Shown here piece by piece: positions 4,898-33,734 of a DNA stretch of 33,734 bases; the stretch's first letter is position 1, and every line of letters starts with the position of its first letter. A program made the position numbers and the translations under genes. Under the pieces are notes generated by a model. The model saw only the letters and a list, made by a program, of their open reading frames with translations. It was not told where the DNA came from and did not search any database. Source of the DNA: Eremomyces bilateralis CBS 781.70 (taxonomy: Eukaryota); assembly GCA_010015585.1 (NCBI GenBank), contig ML975195.1; one strand, written 5' to 3'.

Positions 4898-5403
4898 TGT
4901 GCTGTTTGAACTGTCTTCGGTCTGTTTTCAGTGGTGTTGAGAGGTGACGTGACGTGGAATGAGTAGGGTATGAAACCGATTAAAAGACTGTTAGGTTAAC
5001 TATAGTTAGGTATGTACTATCTAGGCGGTAAATGAACGTTTATGGGGACTTTAATGGCTTTAAAATCGTCGGATCACTGCTCTCTGCTGATCTCAAAGAG
5101 GTGTTTGGATTGGGTCACCGCAATAGCTGTATTGCCGGTTTCATTGGAACGTTATTGTTTAGGTTGGAGGGTTGTAGACATCAGGCATGTAATCGATACT
5201 CCCCTCACTTCAAGGCAACATCGACGATGACGGCATACCTTACGATATTATACCATACTAATGAAACCGATTGGCGAGACTGAATATTGAAGATGCGAGG
5301 GGCATTTACAGTATTCTCTCCCCATATCTATAGACCCTAAGAGTTTAGACCCAAGTTAACTGTCTCGAGTCCATATTACTTCCGGATAGTCGTCAGGGTC
5401 AAT

Positions 5404-5413
5404 ATTGGCCAAT
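5404..5413. promoter_or_regulatory. Palindromic back-to-back CCAAT boxes (ATTGGCCAAT) in a divergent intergenic region
   Basis: Exact 10-bp palindrome between the ABC-F start (4897) and the start at 5652. Confidence 0.35.
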
Positions 5414-5651
5414 CAAATCGTGGCATTTGGTGATGTCGCGCATTCGAGGAGCTTCGACTTCCATTCCACACTTCATTCGCATTTCAATTGCCAAAGCAGA
5501 ACCACAGCACCATAGATTGGTTGCATACTTGAGGAAGCAGACCGAAAGGATCAACTAAACTCCCAGCGTACCGTCCAAGTCGCGATCCCTAGGCGCATAC
5601 CACACCATGCGGAGGCACTCACTACGCGTGTAGTTGACACTCACCACAACT

Positions 5652-7537
5652 ATGTCCGACGTCGAATCCCCTGGATCTGCGCAGCCCTCCTCGACAGGTC
5701 CAAAGTACCCGGCGCCAAAAGACAAGCAATGTCCCTATTGCTACCAACTCTTCACCTCCTCCTCCCTCGGCCGCCACCTCGACCTGTACATCAAGCCGAA
5801 GAACGCCAAACCGCCGGACGGGAAGCACGATGTCGAGGAGATCAAACGGATACGGGGGCACATTACGCGTCGACAGCCGAAGTCCGGGCCGAAGAGAGCG
5901 CCTGGCTCGTCTCGTTATAATGACGTCTCGGCCGACATGTCCACCCCAGCCTTGCGCGTACCGGCGATGAATAGCATCGTATCCCAGACACAGGAGAATG
6001 GCACGTTGGAATTTCCCCGTGCCAGAGCTGTCCCGATGGCACCGCACACATACATACCCGCCGATACGACTGCGCACATGCAACAAGGCGAGACGCCCCA
6101 CGAGTCGACGAGCCCAACGCGGCCGGCCATGGGACAGAAGCTCCCTGAAATCTTTCGGCCAACGTGGTTGACGACAGGGGTGATTTCCGGACTGCCGCCG
6201 CGGCCGGTGAGCGCGTTTGAACATTCCTTGGCGCGTGGCCACGGGTCCGCGGGCGGGACAACGCTGCCGGCTGGGATGGAGAGGGATGTGAAGGAGCGAT
6301 TGAACGAGCATTTGGAGACGGGGGCGGCGGCGCAGAGGGCATTGAAGGAGATGTGGAATGTTTTGGAAGGATTGAAGTGCGTTTAGCTTATATTCCCGAT
6401 GCTACCAGGAACGGATCAGAAGGATGGACTAACAACATTCCCAGCCAACCGAAGCCTCCCGCGCATCCATTTCCCTTCGACCCCGTCTCCCACAACTTTC
6501 CCGGCCTGTGCCTCCGAATCCTGGAACCTCCACCGACGCTCTTCTCCGCGACGCCCTTTGCGATGTCGTCATCTTGCTCCATTAGTCCGCCCGGCCCGAA
6601 TCAATATGATGCGCTGGTTCGCACCGTCCGGGAACGCCTTGCGAACCATAGCGCATGGATGGAGAAATGGTGCATGCAAAAGTCAAGCGATTTGCCGAAT
6701 GCGAGGAACACGGCGACCGAATCGATGACACCGCAGGACAACCATCAAGGTCCTCATGTGACAGGTCCAGAGGCGGCCATAATCCTCGAGCATGTCGATG
6801 TCTCGTATGCACACTTCAGTTCGTTGTCATCGTACGACAAGTCGCAAGCGTGGCAAATCGAGCTGCTGCGCGCGTACTTCCAAACCTCATCCGAGCTCCA
6901 GACGACCCGGAAGGAATTAGATACCGCACGCGCTGAAATCGACGCTCTCCGAGATGGTTGGCTAGGTTTTGAACGCGAAGACAAGGACGGCGGCGGCGCG
7001 ATCCAACGGAGCGAGAGCAGCAAACAATGGAACCAAACCCGCCTCGAACGCGTCATGAAAAACGTCTCCGGCGCCGGCGGACTCTCGCCGCATGCCGCCG
7101 CATTCGCAACCCCCCAAAAGGCCAGCATGCGCAGCATTTCAGATGAAGTACATACGCGGCTCGGGATCAACCTGGGGCCGGGCGACAACCATGTGTCCGC
7201 GTTTGAGAAGCTGCTGCAGCGGTTTCGGGATATCATCCGCCAGGAAGAGCAGAGTAAACCGCGGGAACCGGAGCGGCGGGTGCTGGCGCCGACGCCACCG
7301 GTCGCTGCGCACCGAGTGGCTCCTGGGTACGGAGAGCCAGGGATATCTCCGCCGAAGCGGCAATCTGCGTGGATGAACTCGGATACGAATGGAACGCACT
7401 ATGATCCTATTGAGCGGGAGTTTCGGGCTCATCGGTTTAAGCGGACGCGGACTGGAGCGGACGGACAGGGGGGAGCACAAGACTCTGAGGATGAGGAAGA
7501 CTCTGAGGTCGAAGAACCGGAAGAGGAAGAGCATTAA
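5652..7537 (+). CDS. Fungal hypothetical protein with N-terminal C2H2-like finger and a coiled coil; 2 exons: 5652-6376, 6445-7537; 605 aa
   Basis: CPYCYQLFTSSSLGRHLDLYI..KH motif. Intron GTGCGT...ACTAAC...CAG (6377-6444) joins the two long ORFs in frame. Basic HRFKRTR followed by an acidic tail. Confidence 0.82.
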
Positions 7538-7642
7538 GAACACAGGATACTTACAAAAAGAATGCAAACTTCATTGAGACGATCAGACATAGGAGAGACG
7601 CCATGAAAGCAAAGACACGTCTATGCAACCACAGAAGTGCAG

Positions 7643-9070
7643 CTAGAGGAATAGACCGACGAAAGAGCAAACTCCGAGCAAGCTCCATTGCCACCAACCC
7701 AACACATTCAAGTTCCACCCGCTATTCACCACGGCAATCAGCTCCGTAGCATTCGCCGGCTCCGCCCTATTTCTATACTCGTCATAGATGGCCCTAACCC
7801 CAACCTCCTCCACCGTGGGCAGCCACCGAATGATCCCATTGAGCACGCTGTTCCCCTGCATCAGCTGGCGCCGATTGTACTGCTTCCCGGTGGTGGAGAG
7901 ATGGACGAGGCCGGCAGTGATAGGGGGACGTCCTTGCGACTCGGTGGATGGGAGGTCTTGAACGAATCCCGCCACTTTCGCATCGTCGGTGCCGTGCTTC
8001 AGCGGATCGTTGTGGACGGTGCCGGTGTTTGAGGTGGATGGATGAACCGCCAACATGTGTTCCCGGCCGATGGTCCCGGTTGAGCCAGCGTCGTGGGAGC
8101 CATGCTTCCGTGGATCGTCGTGAGAGCCGTGCTTTCGTGAATCATCGTGGATGATGCCACTCGCACTATTCGCGGACAATGGATGAACCGCCAGCACATT
8201 TTCCTGGAGAACCTTATTGATTGAACTATCGTCGTGAGAGCCGTGCTTTCGTGAATCATCGTGGACGATGCCACTCGCACTATTCGCGGACAATGGATGA
8301 ACCGCCAGCACATTTTCCTGGAGAACCTTATTGATTGAACTATCGTCGTGAGAGCCGTGCTTCCGTGGATCATCATGGACGATACCACTCGCACTATGCG
8401 AGAATGGATGAACGGCCAGCACGTTTTCGTGGCCGACAGTTTCGGTGGAGCAAATGTCATGGGAGCAGTGGTTTTGTGGATCATCGTGGACGATCCTACT
8501 CGCGCTGTTCGAGGAAAATGGATGAACGGCTAATACGTTTTCGTTGGCCGTGGTTGCAGCCGAGTCTGCGTCACCGTGGGTGGTCAAGGTCGAGTCATCG
8601 GCCAATGTGGCAACGAGTTGTCGGCGGTCTCCTGGTTCGTTCCGCCGGAAGATGGACCTGATGAAATCGTAGTTGAGCGGATCGGGAATCGCAGATGAGG
8701 ATTCACGTTTCGCCGGCGCTGGGTCATCTCGAGCCGTCAAGATAATCTGATGTCCCTTCTGCCACTTTCTAGCGATGCCTTTACGTGGGAACTTCAAGAA
8801 CATGGGCTGCTGGGCAACGTGTCGCTTGGTTTCGACGGTGATGATCCCGGACTCCCGATCCAGCGTCGCTCGTTCGTCCCCGTACGCGGCCTTCTGCGCG
8901 TTCAGGTAATTGACGTTCAGTACATTGCTCGCGCCTTGCCCGAGGCGTCCGAAGAAGTTTTTGACGATATCCACGGCGGGCCGGGGCGGGGGGTCGGAGT
9001 CATACTCAACGGGCGTGGCTTGAATTGTAGGGGATAACAGGAGGAGCGGAACTAGGAGTTCTTTATACAT
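7643..9070 (-). CDS. Secreted, probably GPI- or membrane-anchored protein with five His/Asp-rich ~38-aa tandem repeats; possible in-frame 66-nt intron at 8719-8784
   Basis: Signal peptide MYKELLVPLLLLSPTIQA; repeats ENVLAVHPxSxNSASGIVHDDxRKHGSHDD; KR/RR sites; C-terminal NSG followed by a hydrophobic tail. Confidence 0.85.
   Translation of the reverse strand: MYKELLVPLLLLSPTIQATPVEYDSDPPPRPAVDIVKNFFGRLGQGASNVLNVNYLNAQKAAYGDERATLDRESGIITVETKRHVAQQPMFLKFPRKGIARKWQKGHQIILTARDDPAPAKRESSSAIPDPLNYDFIRSIFRRNEPGDRRQLVATLADDSTLTTHGDADSAATTANENVLAVHPFSSNSASRIVHDDPQNHCSHDICSTETVGHENVLAVHPFSHSASGIVHDDPRKHGSHDDSSINKVLQENVLAVHPLSANSASGIVHDDSRKHGSHDDSSINKVLQENVLAVHPLSANSASGIIHDDSRKHGSHDDPRKHGSHDAGSTGTIGREHMLAVHPSTSNTGTVHNDPLKHGTDDAKVAGFVQDLPSTESQGRPPITAGLVHLSTTGKQYNRRQLMQGNSVLNGIIRWLPTVEEVGVRAIYDEYRNRAEPANATELIAVVNSGWNLNVLGWWQWSLLGVCSFVGLFL
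7980..8542 (-). repeat. Coding tandem repeat, 5 units, period 111-141 bp (canonical 114 bp)
   Basis: Unit starts (Glu codon) at 8542, 8428, 8317, 8203 and 8062. Units 3 and 4 are nearly identical over most of their length; unit 4 has an internal 27-bp duplication. Confidence 0.95.
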
Positions 9071-9970
9071 GTTGGAATTGGACTGTATGACTCGGATAGA
9101 GTATGGATATGGAAATACCGATTACGGCAGTGCTGGAAAGGTTAAGATACGGGGGACTCAGGCGTCGCCCAAAATGCAACCGGACCGAAGACTGCGACGG
9201 AACTGGGGAGGAATGAAGATAGGACAGAGCAAAAGATAGAGACATGGTTACGGTATGTGATGATTACCGGTATGGCAGAAAGAACCATGAGCCGAATGGA
9301 TGGATGCTCTTGCTCTTATCCAGCTGGCAGCAGTGTGATAAACCAGTGTGAAGTATGATTCTAGGAAGGTTCGAGGAACCTGCCATGGTGATATTTCTGG
9401 TTCATTACTTGAAGCGCTGAGCAAGTCTTGGAGCTTGCGCTGTCAGATCTGATGTTAATAGCGATACGTGGTTATTTCTATCTAATGTAGTTGTTGAGAA
9501 AATTGTGTGCCATGCTTGAGGTTGAATTGGATCATGACGATGCAACAGTTCTCGGCCTGCTAGAAGTTCGAATGGACAGGGGCTCTGCCTGCCGAGTTCC
9601 GGGCAAGCCTTATGCCCTTGTTGCCTTATCGGGACCCCCCGCCACGATCTGCGCTTACATTGGCTGGCAACGTGAGGACAAGGTTCCTTACTTTGATCGC
9701 ACCACCACTTCACCACCATCCTCACACCACCGATCCTCCTCCTCCCACCAGACCTATCATCACTCATCAAGAGATGCCAATTAACAATCCATGTCGGTTC
9801 CTGCTGCCGGCCATGGAGCCGAAATGTTGCACCTGGCACCACCATCACCTGAGTTGTGTCCTACTGTAGTCTGGGGGAGTGTAAGTCTTTTCGATGCCCG
9901 TCCACCTGATCGCCGCATCCGGAGCCGCGAAAAGGCTACGGAATGGGTCGATGGACGTTTCTACGTATGG

Positions 9971-9978
9971 TATATAAA
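9971..9978 (+). promoter_or_regulatory. TATA box (TATATAAA) upstream of the 75-aa ORF
   Basis: Canonical TATA followed by a CT/CA-rich leader and a strong start context CACAATGGC at 10144. Confidence 0.6.
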
Positions 9979-10143
9979 CCTCTCTCTACATGTCCGTGTA
10001 TTCAGCCTCTCCATCTCCACTCCAGTGTACAAACAAGCAACGTGACCATTCACCAAACAACGTCTCCTCTCAACTGTCACAACATATAATCAACCTCTCT
10101 CCTCACCCAAACCACCAACACACCCCCCTCCCCCCTACACACA

Positions 10144-10371
10144 ATGGCCTCAAGAACTCCCATCATGCGCCTCGTCGCTTCCGCCCGCTCCTACCTCACC
10201 GAAGCCCATCCCATGGCTCGCATGCCCGTCACCACCCGCGCCCACGCCCTCAACACCTCCAAATATTTCCGCCGCGCCGGCCGCACCACCGCCGCATTAC
10301 TCATCGCCATGCCCGTCCTCCTCGGCTGGCCGATCGCCGCCGCCTCCATGCTCAAACGAACCGGGATCTGA
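10144..10371 (+). CDS. 75-aa single-TM mitochondrial-type micropeptide (LGWP motif, possibly Cox26-like)
   Basis: Arg/Ser/Ala-rich N-terminus with almost no acidic residues, one C-terminal hydrophobic helix, C-ending codon bias, TATA box and good ATG context. Confidence 0.75.
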   Translation: MASRTPIMRLVASARSYLTEAHPMARMPVTTRAHALNTSKYFRRAGRTTAALLIAMPVLLGWPIAAASMLKRTGI

Positions 10372-11120
10372 CTCCATGGCCCGGCGTGGGGCTTGTCGAA
10401 GGCGCTGCTGGTTATGGTGGAGGGGTTGGGGGTATCGGGGGAGGACGCCGATGTCGTAAGACGGGGGAGGCCGTGGGAGATTACCGGAATGTCGGATTGG
10501 GATTTGAGGAGGGCGATAGAGCAGGCGGAGGATGCGAGGGTGGTGGTCGAGATGATGGGGAGGGATTTTGGGGAATGATATATGGGTTTGGGAAAGCATG
10601 CATGGCAATCGGAGTTTATGGTGACGGAAAGGCATGTCTGTCGGCAGGAACTGGACTTCTTCTCGGTTCTCATCGAATTTAGAACCATTGGGAAATTCCT
10701 GGTATGACGCTTGTCGTTGGAGGTTGGGATCTACTGTATATAGGTATCCCGTTTCAATCCTTCGAATAATGAAGAATATTGATGAATCTTGGATCCATTT
10801 CCCGTCGTGATTCTTTTTGACCTAGCAAAGTAGACTCCTTAAAGCTGGAGGCGGTCGTCGATCACCAGCACGCCTCCGTCGTTGCGTATCTTGAATGCCG
10901 TACTAAGCCTCGTCATTACATTCGCTTGTTTCATCGGAGCTTGAGTGTGTTGGTGAACAGGCGATGCGCATCTCTCAATGGCTTTGCGGTCGAGTGTCTT
11001 GGAAGCCCTTTATCCTCTTGTATAGTTGATATTGACCGTCGCATCGAGTCGTGCCTGGCTCATCTATACCGTAGGCGAAGCTCCATCGATCACATTTTCG
11101 TCCCGGTCGCAATCGATCGC

Positions 11121-13142
11121 TCAGCTTAACATCTTGCTTCCCTCCTCCTGCCTCAACCGAGCTCTTCCACCTTCCACCTCACGATCTTCCTTCATAACGC
11201 CCATCATCTCCTCCAAATCCCCCGCCGTCGCCTCCCATTTCTTTTGATGAATCTTCCCCGTCCCATACTCCTTCGTCTTCCCATACGCCCCCCCTTCCTT
11301 CCGTCGGTGCTCGATCGCTTTGAGATACGGCGCCGCGGTCGGCGGCTGGACGGGATCCAAGTGGAGGTAATCGGCCGGGATTTGATATGTTGTGTCGGAG
11401 TCGAAGGAGCTCAAGTCGCCGCACGCAAGGAATTGGGTCACTTGCGCGTTTCGACGGGCGCGGAACTCTTCGTCGGTCAGCTCCTCGTCGGGAGATGGGT
11501 CTTCCATGGGGAATTCAAGGACGTGGGCGCCATCCTCGCGCACGGTGCGACTCGCTGGGGGTTGCACGGATAAATCGTTCTCATGACGGGTTTCCTTGCT
11601 TTCGCTCGGGACTTTATTGGTTCCTTCCATATCACCGAGCCATGCCATGCCCAATCCGTTTCTTTTAGCCTGTGCAGTTTCGCCCGCGACGTTTTCCTTA
11701 AGTCGCTTCATGGCCGGATCCCACAGCCCGTAAAATCGGAGCGACTCTTCCGAAGCCAGTTCTCCTTCCTTCGGTCTCGGTGGCACAATGTTTCCATAGC
11801 CGAGTTTCATATCCAGGCTGGGTTTGAACCCGTCCGGCAGGTTGAGCCCTTCACAGACCACGAATGCCTCTAAACTGCTCGACCGGCTCGCCTTGGGCTT
11901 GGCGATGGTGACGCGCTCAAAGACCAGGCTCATCTGCGACCAGATGAACTGCGCGTTCGTGGTCGAGCGGAAGATTTTTGCCACGAACTTGCCCCCGGGT
12001 TTGAGGATGCACATCGCCAGGGTCAACGCGGAGTAGAGCAGCTGCGATTGCACGTAGATGTCCATGTCGTGGAGGCCGGTGACATCGGGGGCTCCGTCGC
12101 ATAGGACGAGGTCGACGGGATTGGTCGGGGTGTCGGGGTTGCTCGTGTCACGGCCGGGGTCTAAAGCGTCAAGAAGGCGGGGGATGGTGCTAGGATGGGT
12201 GATATCGGCGCGGATCGTGGTGATGCCCTCGAGCGGCGACATCGGCTGCAGATCGACTGATACGATCTTGACATTTTTCGCGGTCTGGGATTGCTCATCG
12301 CGACTTGAGACACCGGCATCGTGCTCTTCTTGCATCTGTCGCTGGAGTTCGCAGCCGAGACAAGGATTCTTGCCATGAGTGGTGACCGGCTCGCGCGGTA
12401 CGCTCATCATGTGTGGAGGGCCCTCCGGTGGACAGGGCATCTGGAAGTCCTCGTCATCCTCGGCGATATTCCATAGCTCCATCAGGCTCATGTTTGCCTT
12501 TTGTTCTTCCGTGAATGAATCTGAATATTTGGGAGGCAGGTCCCACATATAGTCAGGAATATCTTCCATGTTTTCCCGGAGCCAGTCGTGCCACGAACGT
12601 TTTCGTCTTTCGTCCGGGCTGAGCCGTTTCCATGTGTCCCATGTGTCCAATGTTGTATCTGTAGGTGTCGTTGGCTCCATCCCCGATGGACCCTGCCTTT
12701 CAACGACTTTCTTTCCTTCTTCTACTGAAAGCGTCTCCTGAGCTGGTTCTGGATCCCGCTCTTCGAGGGGTAACCCCTGCTCTTCTAGTATCCGGTTACG
12801 GCATCGTCTACAGGAGCCAGGTAAACGAGGATTCTTAGGCCTAGGAACCCCAAGATCCCAATCCTTATGGTCCTCCAGGATGTCCCTCATGACCAACAGC
12901 TCCTTCAGGGCGCGGTCGACATATGCCGCCCGGCCAAATCGCTCCCCTTTGATCAAGACCCGAGAGAGCACCTGGCTCCAGCTCCCGGGGGCAGCACATA
13001 AGTCCACGACACGTGTCACACCTTCGAAGAGATTGAATTCTTCGTCCAGTTGTAATAGCTTGAAGGCACTGCGTGCCCGCCATCCTTGCTCTTTCGCGAG
13101 ACGATAATAGATATCTCGCTTGTCCTTGGAGGACTTTCCCAT
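11121..13142 (-). CDS. TRM7: tRNA (cytidine32/guanosine34-2'-O)-methyltransferase Trm7 (FtsJ family) with large insertions; 673 aa
   Basis: MGKSSKDKRDIYYRLAKEQGWRARSAFKL, DLCAAPGSWSQ, DLQPM, CDGAPDVTGLHD, FVAKIFR, KPKASRSSSLEAF, FLACGDL, PVQPPTAAPY. Confidence 0.96.
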   Translation of the reverse strand: MGKSSKDKRDIYYRLAKEQGWRARSAFKLLQLDEEFNLFEGVTRVVDLCAAPGSWSQVLSRVLIKGERFGRAAYVDRALKELLVMRDILEDHKDWDLGVPRPKNPRLPGSCRRCRNRILEEQGLPLEERDPEPAQETLSVEEGKKVVERQGPSGMEPTTPTDTTLDTWDTWKRLSPDERRKRSWHDWLRENMEDIPDYMWDLPPKYSDSFTEEQKANMSLMELWNIAEDDEDFQMPCPPEGPPHMMSVPREPVTTHGKNPCLGCELQRQMQEEHDAGVSSRDEQSQTAKNVKIVSVDLQPMSPLEGITTIRADITHPSTIPRLLDALDPGRDTSNPDTPTNPVDLVLCDGAPDVTGLHDMDIYVQSQLLYSALTLAMCILKPGGKFVAKIFRSTTNAQFIWSQMSLVFERVTIAKPKASRSSSLEAFVVCEGLNLPDGFKPSLDMKLGYGNIVPPRPKEGELASEESLRFYGLWDPAMKRLKENVAGETAQAKRNGLGMAWLGDMEGTNKVPSESKETRHENDLSVQPPASRTVREDGAHVLEFPMEDPSPDEELTDEEFRARRNAQVTQFLACGDLSSFDSDTTYQIPADYLHLDPVQPPTAAPYLKAIEHRRKEGGAYGKTKEYGTGKIHQKKWEATAGDLEEMMGVMKEDREVEGGRARLRQEEGSKMLS

Positions 13143-33263: not shown

Positions 33264-33734
33264 ATGGCACCCCAACTGCGTGGAATTGGTACGCGCAGTA
33301 CGCGAACGCGCGTCCGGTTTGAAGACGAGATTGAGCGCACTGCTCAACTTGCGAGAGAACAAACAGCTACGAAGAAAAAGAACACAAAGAAGGCGGCCCC
33401 AAAGACGGCGGGTAGAAAGAAGAAAGCCCAGGTAGCTCCAAAGAAGATATCGGCGAAGGCATCGTCGTCTAGCATACCCAAGACCGCTAGCAAGACAACA
33501 CCTCTGGAGCTAGATCCGCAAAGGGGCCTTGCAGACGATGAGGAAGAGCTAGGAGAGGAAGAGCAGGAAGAGGAAGAGTAGGAAGAGGAAGAGCAGAAAG
33601 AGGAAGAGCAGGAAGAGGAAGAGCAGGAAGAGGGTACGGTTACTCCGAAACCGAGCCGTAAACGGAGTCGATCTCAAACCGATCAGCTACCGATACGGAC
33701 ACCACCTACGATGACCGGTTCGAAGGCATATGAT
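33264..33734 (+). pseudogene. ORF with basic N-terminus and acidic repeat, interrupted by TAG at 33579-33581 and otherwise open to the window end; possible transposon relic
   Basis: The TAG lies where sister repeat units have CAG. The frame stays open for 51 more codons. An AT-rich leader precedes it at 33200-33263. Confidence 0.55.
33540..33632 (+). repeat. 15-bp tandem repeat GAGGAAGAGCAGGAA x6 (EEEQE)
   Basis: Units start at 33540, 33555, 33570, 33585, 33600 and 33615. Confidence 0.95.

Follow-up and report, generated by a model that had tools for sequence, protein, structure and literature searches.

The DNA analysed here, called the window throughout, is a stretch of 33,734 nucleotides from contig ML975195.1 (assembly GCA_010015585.1) of the dothideomycete Eremomyces bilateralis CBS 781.70, order Eremomycetales, a species with a type strain recorded from pack-rat dung (PMC4150071). 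Its reverse strand carries an intronless open reading frame (ORF) of 475 codons, the predicted product of which is laid out like a secreted precursor, with a signal-peptide-like start, a basic pro-region, five tandem repeats rich in histidine and aspartate, and a hydrophobic tail (Table 1). Here we report that this frame is a real, constrained gene with a repeat core under purifying selection, and weigh what its product may do. Papers are cited by PubMed Central (PMC) number.

Table 1. The 475-codon gene, the parts of its predicted product and the annotated upstream exon, in window coordinates
Feature	Positions	Strand	Remark
Intronless ORF, 475 amino acids (aa)	7643..9070	-	ATG 9070, stop 7643; preferred gene model
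Annotated upstream exon 9245-9119 and 58-nt intron 9118-9061	9061..9245	-	NCBI 514-aa model
Signal-peptide-like start, residues 1-18	9017..9070	-	hydropathy peak at residues 4-17; inferred cleavage site
Basic pro-region, residues 19-150 (isoelectric point 9.8)	8621..9016	-	Kex2-type sites TKR83, LTAR114 (LxxR), AKR122, FRR143, DRR150
Acidic His-rich block, residues 151-401 (251 aa, 26 His, net -13)	7868..8620	-	between RR-QL sites, no KR/RR inside
Repeat unit 1, residues 177-214	8429..8542	-	two Cys where other units have Gly/Ser
Repeat unit 2, residues 215-251	8318..8428	-	unit alignment
Repeat unit 3, residues 252-289	8204..8317	-	unit alignment
Repeat unit 4, residues 290-336	8063..8203	-	9-residue internal duplication
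Repeat unit 5, residues 337-373	7952..8062	-	most diverged; fourth His replaced by Asp
C-terminal segment, residues 402-448	7727..7867	-	after NRR401; only N-glycosylation sequon (N440)
Glycosylphosphatidylinositol (GPI)-signal-like tail	7643..7726	-	consensus match: omega candidate N449-S-G (or A446), spacer, hydrophobic end

Coding potential was scored with a three-periodic Markov model trained on 10 ORFs from conserved genes of the window. The 475-codon frame scores 0.11 bits/codon, against -0.07 to -0.39 for the other five frames and -0.03 to 0.18 for left-out controls. Every segment of the ORF scores as coding in the ORF's own frame, the pro-region at 0.19, the C-terminal part at 0.13-0.15 and the repeats lower, at 0.02; across the repeat block each of the other five frames contains 2-14 stops. 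Residues 4-475 are identical (472/472) to residues 43-514 of the hypothetical protein P152DRAFT_259476 of the same strain, which NCBI and UniRef hold in a 514-aa form only.

That form arises from an extra 42-codon exon, starting at ATG 9245, and the 58-nt intron that follows it. Were it correct, hydrophobic residues 39-51 would act as an internal signal anchor, the product would be a membrane protein and its dibasic sites might be irrelevant. The public entry itself, an intron that runs in frame from GT to AG (ending AAG) and an A at -3 of ATG 9245 speak for it. However, the extra exon scores -0.17, like intergenic DNA (a value reached or undercut by 5 of 108 coding windows, and reached or exceeded by 38 of 126 intergenic ones). 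The opening 42 codons of the intronless frame behave like coding DNA at 0.13, which 4 of 126 intergenic windows equal or exceed, and no CTRAY branch site is present in the annotated intron, unlike in that of the neighbouring gene. ATG 9070 is therefore preferred and the 514-aa model improbable; the extra first exon of the public model is probably wrong and hides the signal peptide, its region being probably 5' untranslated sequence with upstream ATGs. With ATG 9070 as the start, the hydrophobic stretch falls at the N-terminus as the predicted signal peptide, in agreement with the initial annotation.

Frames of 14, 40, 48 and 60 codons begin at the upstream ATGs 9405, 9386, 9288 and 9245 (window 9070-9405, reverse strand); the 60-codon frame overlaps the main ATG out of frame and could restrain translation if the transcript contains these ATGs. 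A sequencing run, X1, that is RNA only by guess has contigs over 29 of the 30 bins of 5400-11200, including 8736-9044 and 9166-9412, with no cover at 9474-9667; contig depth in X1 cannot rank genes. No joint is listed at the annotated intron 9118-9061, but contig 6057-6550 of the same run crosses the canonical-looking intron 6377-6444 of the neighbouring gene unspliced, so that the missing joint does not decide the gene model. A second run, X2, has four listed pieces, of low depth; they are identical to the window, and their source is not a diverged relative. X1 also shows A>C differences at 6041 and 10285, and one low-depth joint, 10647-10682, with non-canonical ends.

The five repeats, which the initial annotation had described as His/Asp units, are anchored on the motif VHP at residues 182, 220, 257, 295 and 342 (spacings of 38, 37, 38 and 47). 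They are 37-47 residues long and hold 4, 6, 4, 6 and 4 His and 3-5 Asp each. Tandem Repeats Finder places 3.7 copies of a 114-bp period at 8114-8527 and, at 8089-8149, sees a duplication of 27 bp, and a hidden Markov model of the units found no degenerate sixth repeat. In composition the repeats are 12% His, 13% Asp/Glu and 18% Ser+Thr; they contain 24 His over 198 residues, whereas stretches of this length in 10 other ORFs of the window never exceed 9.

The repeat core is under purifying selection. Over 26 ungapped core columns the ratio of nonsynonymous to synonymous divergence (dN/dS) is 0.04-0.19, with Fisher P <= 0.02, in nine of the ten unit pairs, which are not independent and for which the core was picked after viewing the alignment; the tenth pair, units 3 and 4, is uninformative owing to its one-base difference. 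Over all 34 ungapped columns eight of ten pairs are significant, because the unit tails differ. Variation in the core touches third codon positions in 18 of the 26 columns and second positions in 5. Synonymous divergence in the core reaches 0.69, and the array is therefore old, with one recent duplication, the first 30 codons of unit 4 differing from those of unit 3 by one base. Ten columns are invariant (E1, L4, A5, V6, H7, P8, H19, D21, H25 and D29), and the Asp that replaces the lost fourth His in unit 5 is another possible ligand. Such conservation is more in keeping with a small folded module than with a loose tract of His. Unit 1 has the only two Cys of the ectodomain, near each other (H-C-S-H-D-I-C) and both encoded by TGC where unit 4 has GGC; they could form a small disulfide loop or serve as extra metal ligands.

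By all searches run here the protein is an orphan, with no relative, no paralogue and no Pfam or PDB match; the initial annotation had recognised no family either. A search of 5.8 billion clustered proteins (8000 candidates scored) and one of 1.84 billion representatives, made without a word index, each returned the protein alone, and its cluster has one member. Residues 19-175 compared with shorter proteins gave no relative among 40 candidates, and residues 364-475 compared with longer proteins none among 41, the latter being weak evidence by the tool's own note. Metagenome contigs (361 stretches) and prokaryote genomes (52) yielded none. A single match of the repeat alignment to the metagenome (1 of 105), 12 residues long and antisense to a long bacterial-type ORF, was attributed to chance. 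The strain's own genome has no paralogue of the whole protein, the N-part, the C-part or the repeat; an N-part match at E = 0.14 contains a stop and was rejected. Pfam returned only sub-threshold matches to MYRF_ICA, TMEM214 and DUF6006, NCBIfam none, and PDB one antibody match (E = 0.71) for the protein and none for the repeat profile. In the open-access literature no description of the protein or of such a layout was found, nor, by title or abstract start, any His-rich GPI/Kex2 fungal surface protein; judged by their titles, none of 13 papers naming the species deals with this gene. Since the repeats are old, relatives probably exist in unsampled Eremomycetales.

The genome contains one Kex2-type P-domain gene, in an 829-aa frame. 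KR and RR are standard Kex2 sites (PMC10699272); at P1 the protease takes almost only Arg, at P2 Lys or Arg and also Thr, Pro, Glu and Ile, while an aliphatic P4 is preferred and Asp at P3 unfavourable (PMC8528282), and acidic or small residues occupy P1' and P2' (PMC2515848). The ORF has KR/RR sites at TKR83, AKR122 and FRR143, at R150 (DRR/QLV) and at R401 (NRR/QLM), all of them named in the initial annotation, with none inside the repeats and no KK anywhere. Four internal RK dipeptides (236, 274, 312 and 321) and the LxxR site R114 had been missed. In 20,000 shuffles of the non-repeat residues, a post hoc test, at least two [KR]R-Q sites arose in 0.6% and two sites with the same two following residues in 1.0%, whereas at least five KR/RR sites arose in 9.7% (mean 2.6); the RR-QL pair is thus modestly unusual and the number of dibasic sites is not.

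Among the 27 Arg after residue 18, the contexts that best suit these published preferences are PAKR122/ES (P4 Pro, P1' Glu), IFRR143/NE (P4 Ile, P2' Glu) and LTAR114/DD; ETKR83 has Glu at P4. The best contexts lie in the N-terminal pro-region, which makes its removal the best-supported step, and five sites (R83, R114, R122, R143 and R150) agree with the criterion for Kex2-processed pro-domain (K2PP) proteins, namely that KR, RR or LxxR follows the signal peptide within the first half. At each of the four internal x-R-K sites both P3 and P4 are Asp; with the repeat-internal Arg in such poor contexts the block probably stays whole. Residues 151-401 are accordingly a candidate mature or shed piece, and segment 402-448 would remain on the cell if R401 were cut. 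A mature N-terminus with pyroglutamate at 151 and release by a cut at 401 may also occur, both being less well supported than pro-region removal. Fragment 84-114 (8729-8821, reverse strand), between TKR83 and LTAR114, has a net charge of +7 and no acidic residue. An antimicrobial-type reading of this cationic fragment was rejected, its hydrophobic moment not exceeding that of shuffles (P = 0.31), and none of the six fragments tested against shuffles had a significant moment.

Kex2-processed repeat proteins (KEPs) were defined by Le Marquer 2019 by at least three similar fragments after cutting at KR/RR, or else KK (PMC6339444). In-silico cutting at KR/RR gives six fragments of 65, 39, 21, 7, 251 and 74 aa, no three of them similar and all repeats in one, so that by this definition (PMC6339444) the predicted protein is not a classical KEP, and the KEP system initially suggested does not stand in its strict sense. 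Le Marquer 2019 also asks for a signal peptide by SignalP and no membrane segment by TMHMM; in its hydropathy profile the protein shows one hydrophobic stretch at the N-terminus and another at the C-terminus. The screens of Umemura 2020 and Vogt 2022 count RK as a Kex2 site, and definitions that allow RK look for at least three repeats of 8-100 aa between KR/KK/RK/RR, or for one fragment similar to two others (PMC7329392; PMC9769878). Cutting at all four dipeptides yields repeat-bearing fragments of 87, 38, 38, 9 and 79 aa, of which the two 38-mers are 97% identical to each other and match the 9-mer over 6 residues; under these definitions the protein is borderline and might pass looser screens. 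A KEP-type precursor would be cut at RK in units 2-4, releasing 38-residue HGSH... peptides together with pro-region peptides, to act as signals or to bind metal; single-Arg cleavage is reported for some KEPs, and pyroglutamate as common in their peptides (PMC9769878). We nevertheless regard it as a poor candidate, given the near-exclusive Arg at P1 and the Asp-flanked RK sites. The RK Arg is moreover missing from units 1 (QN) and 5 (LK) despite conserved flanking residues, and no STE13 dipeptides follow the KR/RR sites. None of the 11 genome matches to UstYa (DUF3328, PF11807) lies on the gene's contig (C47), as the criterion for dikaritin/ustiloxin-type RiPPs (peptides made on ribosomes and modified after translation) would ask. 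The name 'Eremomyces' was not found in the supplements of PMC7329392 (MOESM2 left out) or PMC6339444, as far as these were available.

The C-terminus ends in NSG (449-451) followed by a hydrophobic stretch, as first noted. It matches the fungal GPI consensus [NSGDAC]-[GASVIETKDLF]-[GASV]-X(4,19)-hydrophobic(10) (PMC5555451), with N449 or A446 as omega, and none of 11 other C-termini in the window does so. The surface-anchored precursor proposed in the initial annotation thus gains some ground: the product is probably secreted and tail-anchored, although the tail could instead be a plain tail anchor. The only part modelled with confidence by AlphaFold, run without an alignment, is a helix at 452-474; helices in segment 402-448 are predicted at low confidence.

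A signal peptide, tandem repeats and a GPI tail are the ordinary layout of a fungal wall protein, and the product may have a structural or adhesive role in the wall. Its repeats would then make up a stalk, rich in beta structure and O-glycosylated, or an array that assembles itself, with short hydrophobic strands such as NVLAVH and GIVH; His would serve pH-dependent assembly, cross-linking or incidental metal bridging, and Kex2 would remove the pro-region only. The hydrophobic residues of the core are as invariant as His, and AlphaFold sketches strands in each unit, a hint only at a predicted local distance difference test (pLDDT) below 50. In the ESM Atlas the best score is 0.78, with no usable match for residues 19-150, and the nearest clusters with a family are the wall proteins KRE1 (46% of members, 0.76) and FIT1_2 (41%, 0.75), which is noise level, scores of 0.75-0.78 falling within the range of shuffled proteins. 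Against this explanation, a stalk of the mucin type would be expected to have more Ser+Thr than 18%, the His content of 12% far exceeds that of other window proteins, and no adhesin or wall family was matched in Pfam. We hold it to be possible but somewhat less probable than the metal-buffering array proposed below.

The initial annotation also called the protein zincophore-like. Pra1 is defined by an HRXXH+H core and by synteny with the gene of its ZIP receptor, and it usually ends in a CHTHXXGXXHC tail (PMC12663325). PF13933, the HRXXH deuterolysin-like domain, has no match in the ORF at E <= 10, neither motif occurs in it, and none of the 18 ZIP matches in the genome lies on contig C47. The genome has a separate, canonical PRA1: PF13933 matches contigs C39 and C18, adjoining a ZIP gene in each, and the C39 gene ends in the canonical CHTHXXGXXHC tail. 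Zinc-response sites were compared with the 15-base ZafA consensus (PMC6070888), which is from Aspergillus but carries over, as the C39 PRA1-ZIP control shows; its 794 bp intergenic region holds three CARGGT cores with 0, 1 and 2 mismatches. The 1 kb upstream of the ZIP match on C1 also holds three (1, 3 and 3 mismatches), and the 3.4 kb at a third ZIP locus, on C38, hold one. Our gene has a single core in its upstream 1073 bp, lying 609 bp before the ATG and with 4 mismatches; this corresponds to the background rate of 32 cores in the 33.7 kb window. A shed zincophore of the Pra1/Aspf2 kind, which zinc starvation would induce, Kex2 release and a ZIP transporter take back once it carries zinc, would account for a His/Asp-rich and probably secreted block between two RR-QL sites and for that one upstream core. 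With every Pra1 hallmark missing and a canonical PRA1 elsewhere, this weak reading is unlikely, and the zincophore label in the Pra1 sense is not supported.

A second PRA1-ZIP pair, at C18:531200-533100, has the look of a truncated duplicate: only profile positions 132-245 of PF13933 are left, in a PRA1 remnant that borders an assembly gap and is separated from its ZIP partner by some hundreds of bases. At C1:1707550-1707800, upstream of a ZIP gene, CCATCAAGGTA-type zinc-response cores stand beside two Mac1-type TTTGCTC sites.

The reading we prefer, with a rough probability of 0.4, is that the product is lineage-restricted and matures through Kex2 to a GPI-type protein of the cell surface, its repeats making up a multivalent His/Asp array that buffers metal and is perhaps shed at Arg401. 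Translation would start at ATG 9070, the signal peptide would direct the protein into the endoplasmic reticulum, and a GPI anchor would replace the tail near N449. The basic pro-region would be cut off by Kex2 in the Golgi, most likely at R122 and R143 and perhaps at R114 and R150, and the five repeats would resist the protease as one block. Each unit probably folds as a small module with a hydrophobic core (L-A-V-H-P and I-V-H), a variable Ser/Asn/Gly loop and a D-P/S-x-K-H-G turn, which could gather His7, His19, His25, His28 or its Asp substitute and nearby Asp around a divalent ion (Zn, Cu or Ni). On the wall, or released by a cut at R401, the array would bind, buffer or detoxify extracellular metal outside the zinc-starvation uptake regulon. 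Metal binding by the repeats is plausible.

Several observations weigh against this proposal. In the NCBI model, with its different N-terminus, the signal peptide would end up buried. Shuffling the last 74 residues yields the GPI consensus in 14% of cases, which makes it a permissive pattern, and the residues around omega are unusually hydrophobic. GDRR150/QL has the unfavourable Asp at P3, and YNRR401/QL, which is needed for shedding, has a non-preferred Tyr at P4 and no acidic residue at P1' or P2'. The Kex2-excised, shed fragment of the initial annotation holds in so far as the block is left whole and could be excised, and loses ground at both of its cuts. Invariance is not significantly commoner at His columns (3 of 4) than at the other core columns (7 of 22; P = 0.14), and the searches gave no homologue that shows metal binding. 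The AlphaFold model has no confident fold (mean pLDDT 35.8 for the whole protein and 39.2 for the repeat block), so that the module geometry is a guess. The 1073 bp upstream also lack SreA-type sites and Mac1-type sites (PMC7593903, and a yeast-type pattern).

A more elaborate version, in which Kex2 excises an intact, pyroglutamate-capped array of five copies of a so far undescribed His3-Asp metal-binding module that this dung fungus sheds as a multivalent Cu/Zn sponge apart from the Pra1-Zrt system, appears rather unlikely. Overall, every sequence feature named in the initial annotation is there, and its interpretation is partly supported. Should the repeats bind metal, they would be a His/Asp module that is both small and new, and Kex2, by excising the entire array from a surface anchor, would provide a new route to extracellular metal buffering in fungi. 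As it stands, the case is a single orphan gene from a poorly sampled lineage, in which every part of the layout (pro-region, Kex2 sites, repeats and GPI tail) is already known and the repeat unit matches no family. Two consequences apply regardless of function: the N-terminus of the public gene model is probably wrong and conceals the signal peptide, and a screen in which RK counts as a Kex2 site may class proteins of this sort as KEPs although their repeats are probably left joined.

The surroundings of the gene are housekeeping genes: NUBPL, an ABC ATPase, an FtsJ methyltransferase, a DEAD helicase, SNF2, Fe-ADH, an aspartyl protease, Gpi16, LUC7 and ArfGAP. Three of the 13 ORFs scanned in the window are without a family. 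Divergent from the gene across 1.07 kb lies a 75-aa ORF (10144-10371, forward strand; coding score 0.25) with an Arg-rich N-terminus and a hydrophobic C-terminal stretch, which may resemble a small mitochondrial membrane protein; it forms a one-member cluster in the public collection and has no Pfam or NCBIfam match. On the other side, a convergent two-exon neighbour without a Pfam match (5652-7537, forward strand) has its stop about 105 bp from that of the gene, and its unspliced X1 contig over 6377-6444 could be DNA, pre-mRNA or antisense read-through. In the FtsJ/Trm7-type methyltransferase (11121-13142, reverse strand; 673 aa) Pfam positions 44-180 match residues 289-432, the domain being split by a long insert of roughly 230 residues. 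An intergenic, near-perfect 14-bp tandem repeat of 6.9 copies at 1981-2077 lies close to TGTGCTCA at 1902 and to CARGGT cores at 1949 and 1979, and a 15-bp repeat of 6.3 copies at 33540-33633 encodes a Glu-rich tract.

Compared with known systems, the predicted protein shares with Pra1/Aspf2 and their Zrt1/ZrfC partners (PMC12663325, PMC6070888) a His-rich, probably secreted character and a possible capacity for zinc, and unlike Pra1/Aspf2 it has no HRXXH domain, CHTHXXGXXHC tail, linked ZIP gene or good ZafA site. With KEPs (PMC6339444, PMC7329392, PMC9769878) it has in common a signal peptide, tandem repeats and several KR/RR sites, two of them followed by Gln. It differs in that KR/RR flank the repeat block instead of separating the units, in its GPI-like tail and the lack of a UstYa neighbour, and in internal sites that are only RK, in poor context and missing from two of five units. 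The GPI-anchored Ser/Thr repeat proteins of the wall (Fit1-, Kre1- and Flo/Als-type) likewise combine a signal peptide, tandem repeats and a GPI consensus, but no family match links them to this protein, whose repeats are His/Asp-rich with 18% Ser+Thr. Candida Pga17 is another GPI wall protein. It is listed as Kex2-cleaved (PMC2515848), and with it and the K2PP proteins (Outram 2021, PMC8528282) our protein shares N-terminal pro-region sites of the KR/RR/LxxR kind and a probable surface anchor; it is unrelated to them in sequence, and is set apart by a second possible cut near the anchor and by a mature part that is a His/Asp repeat array.

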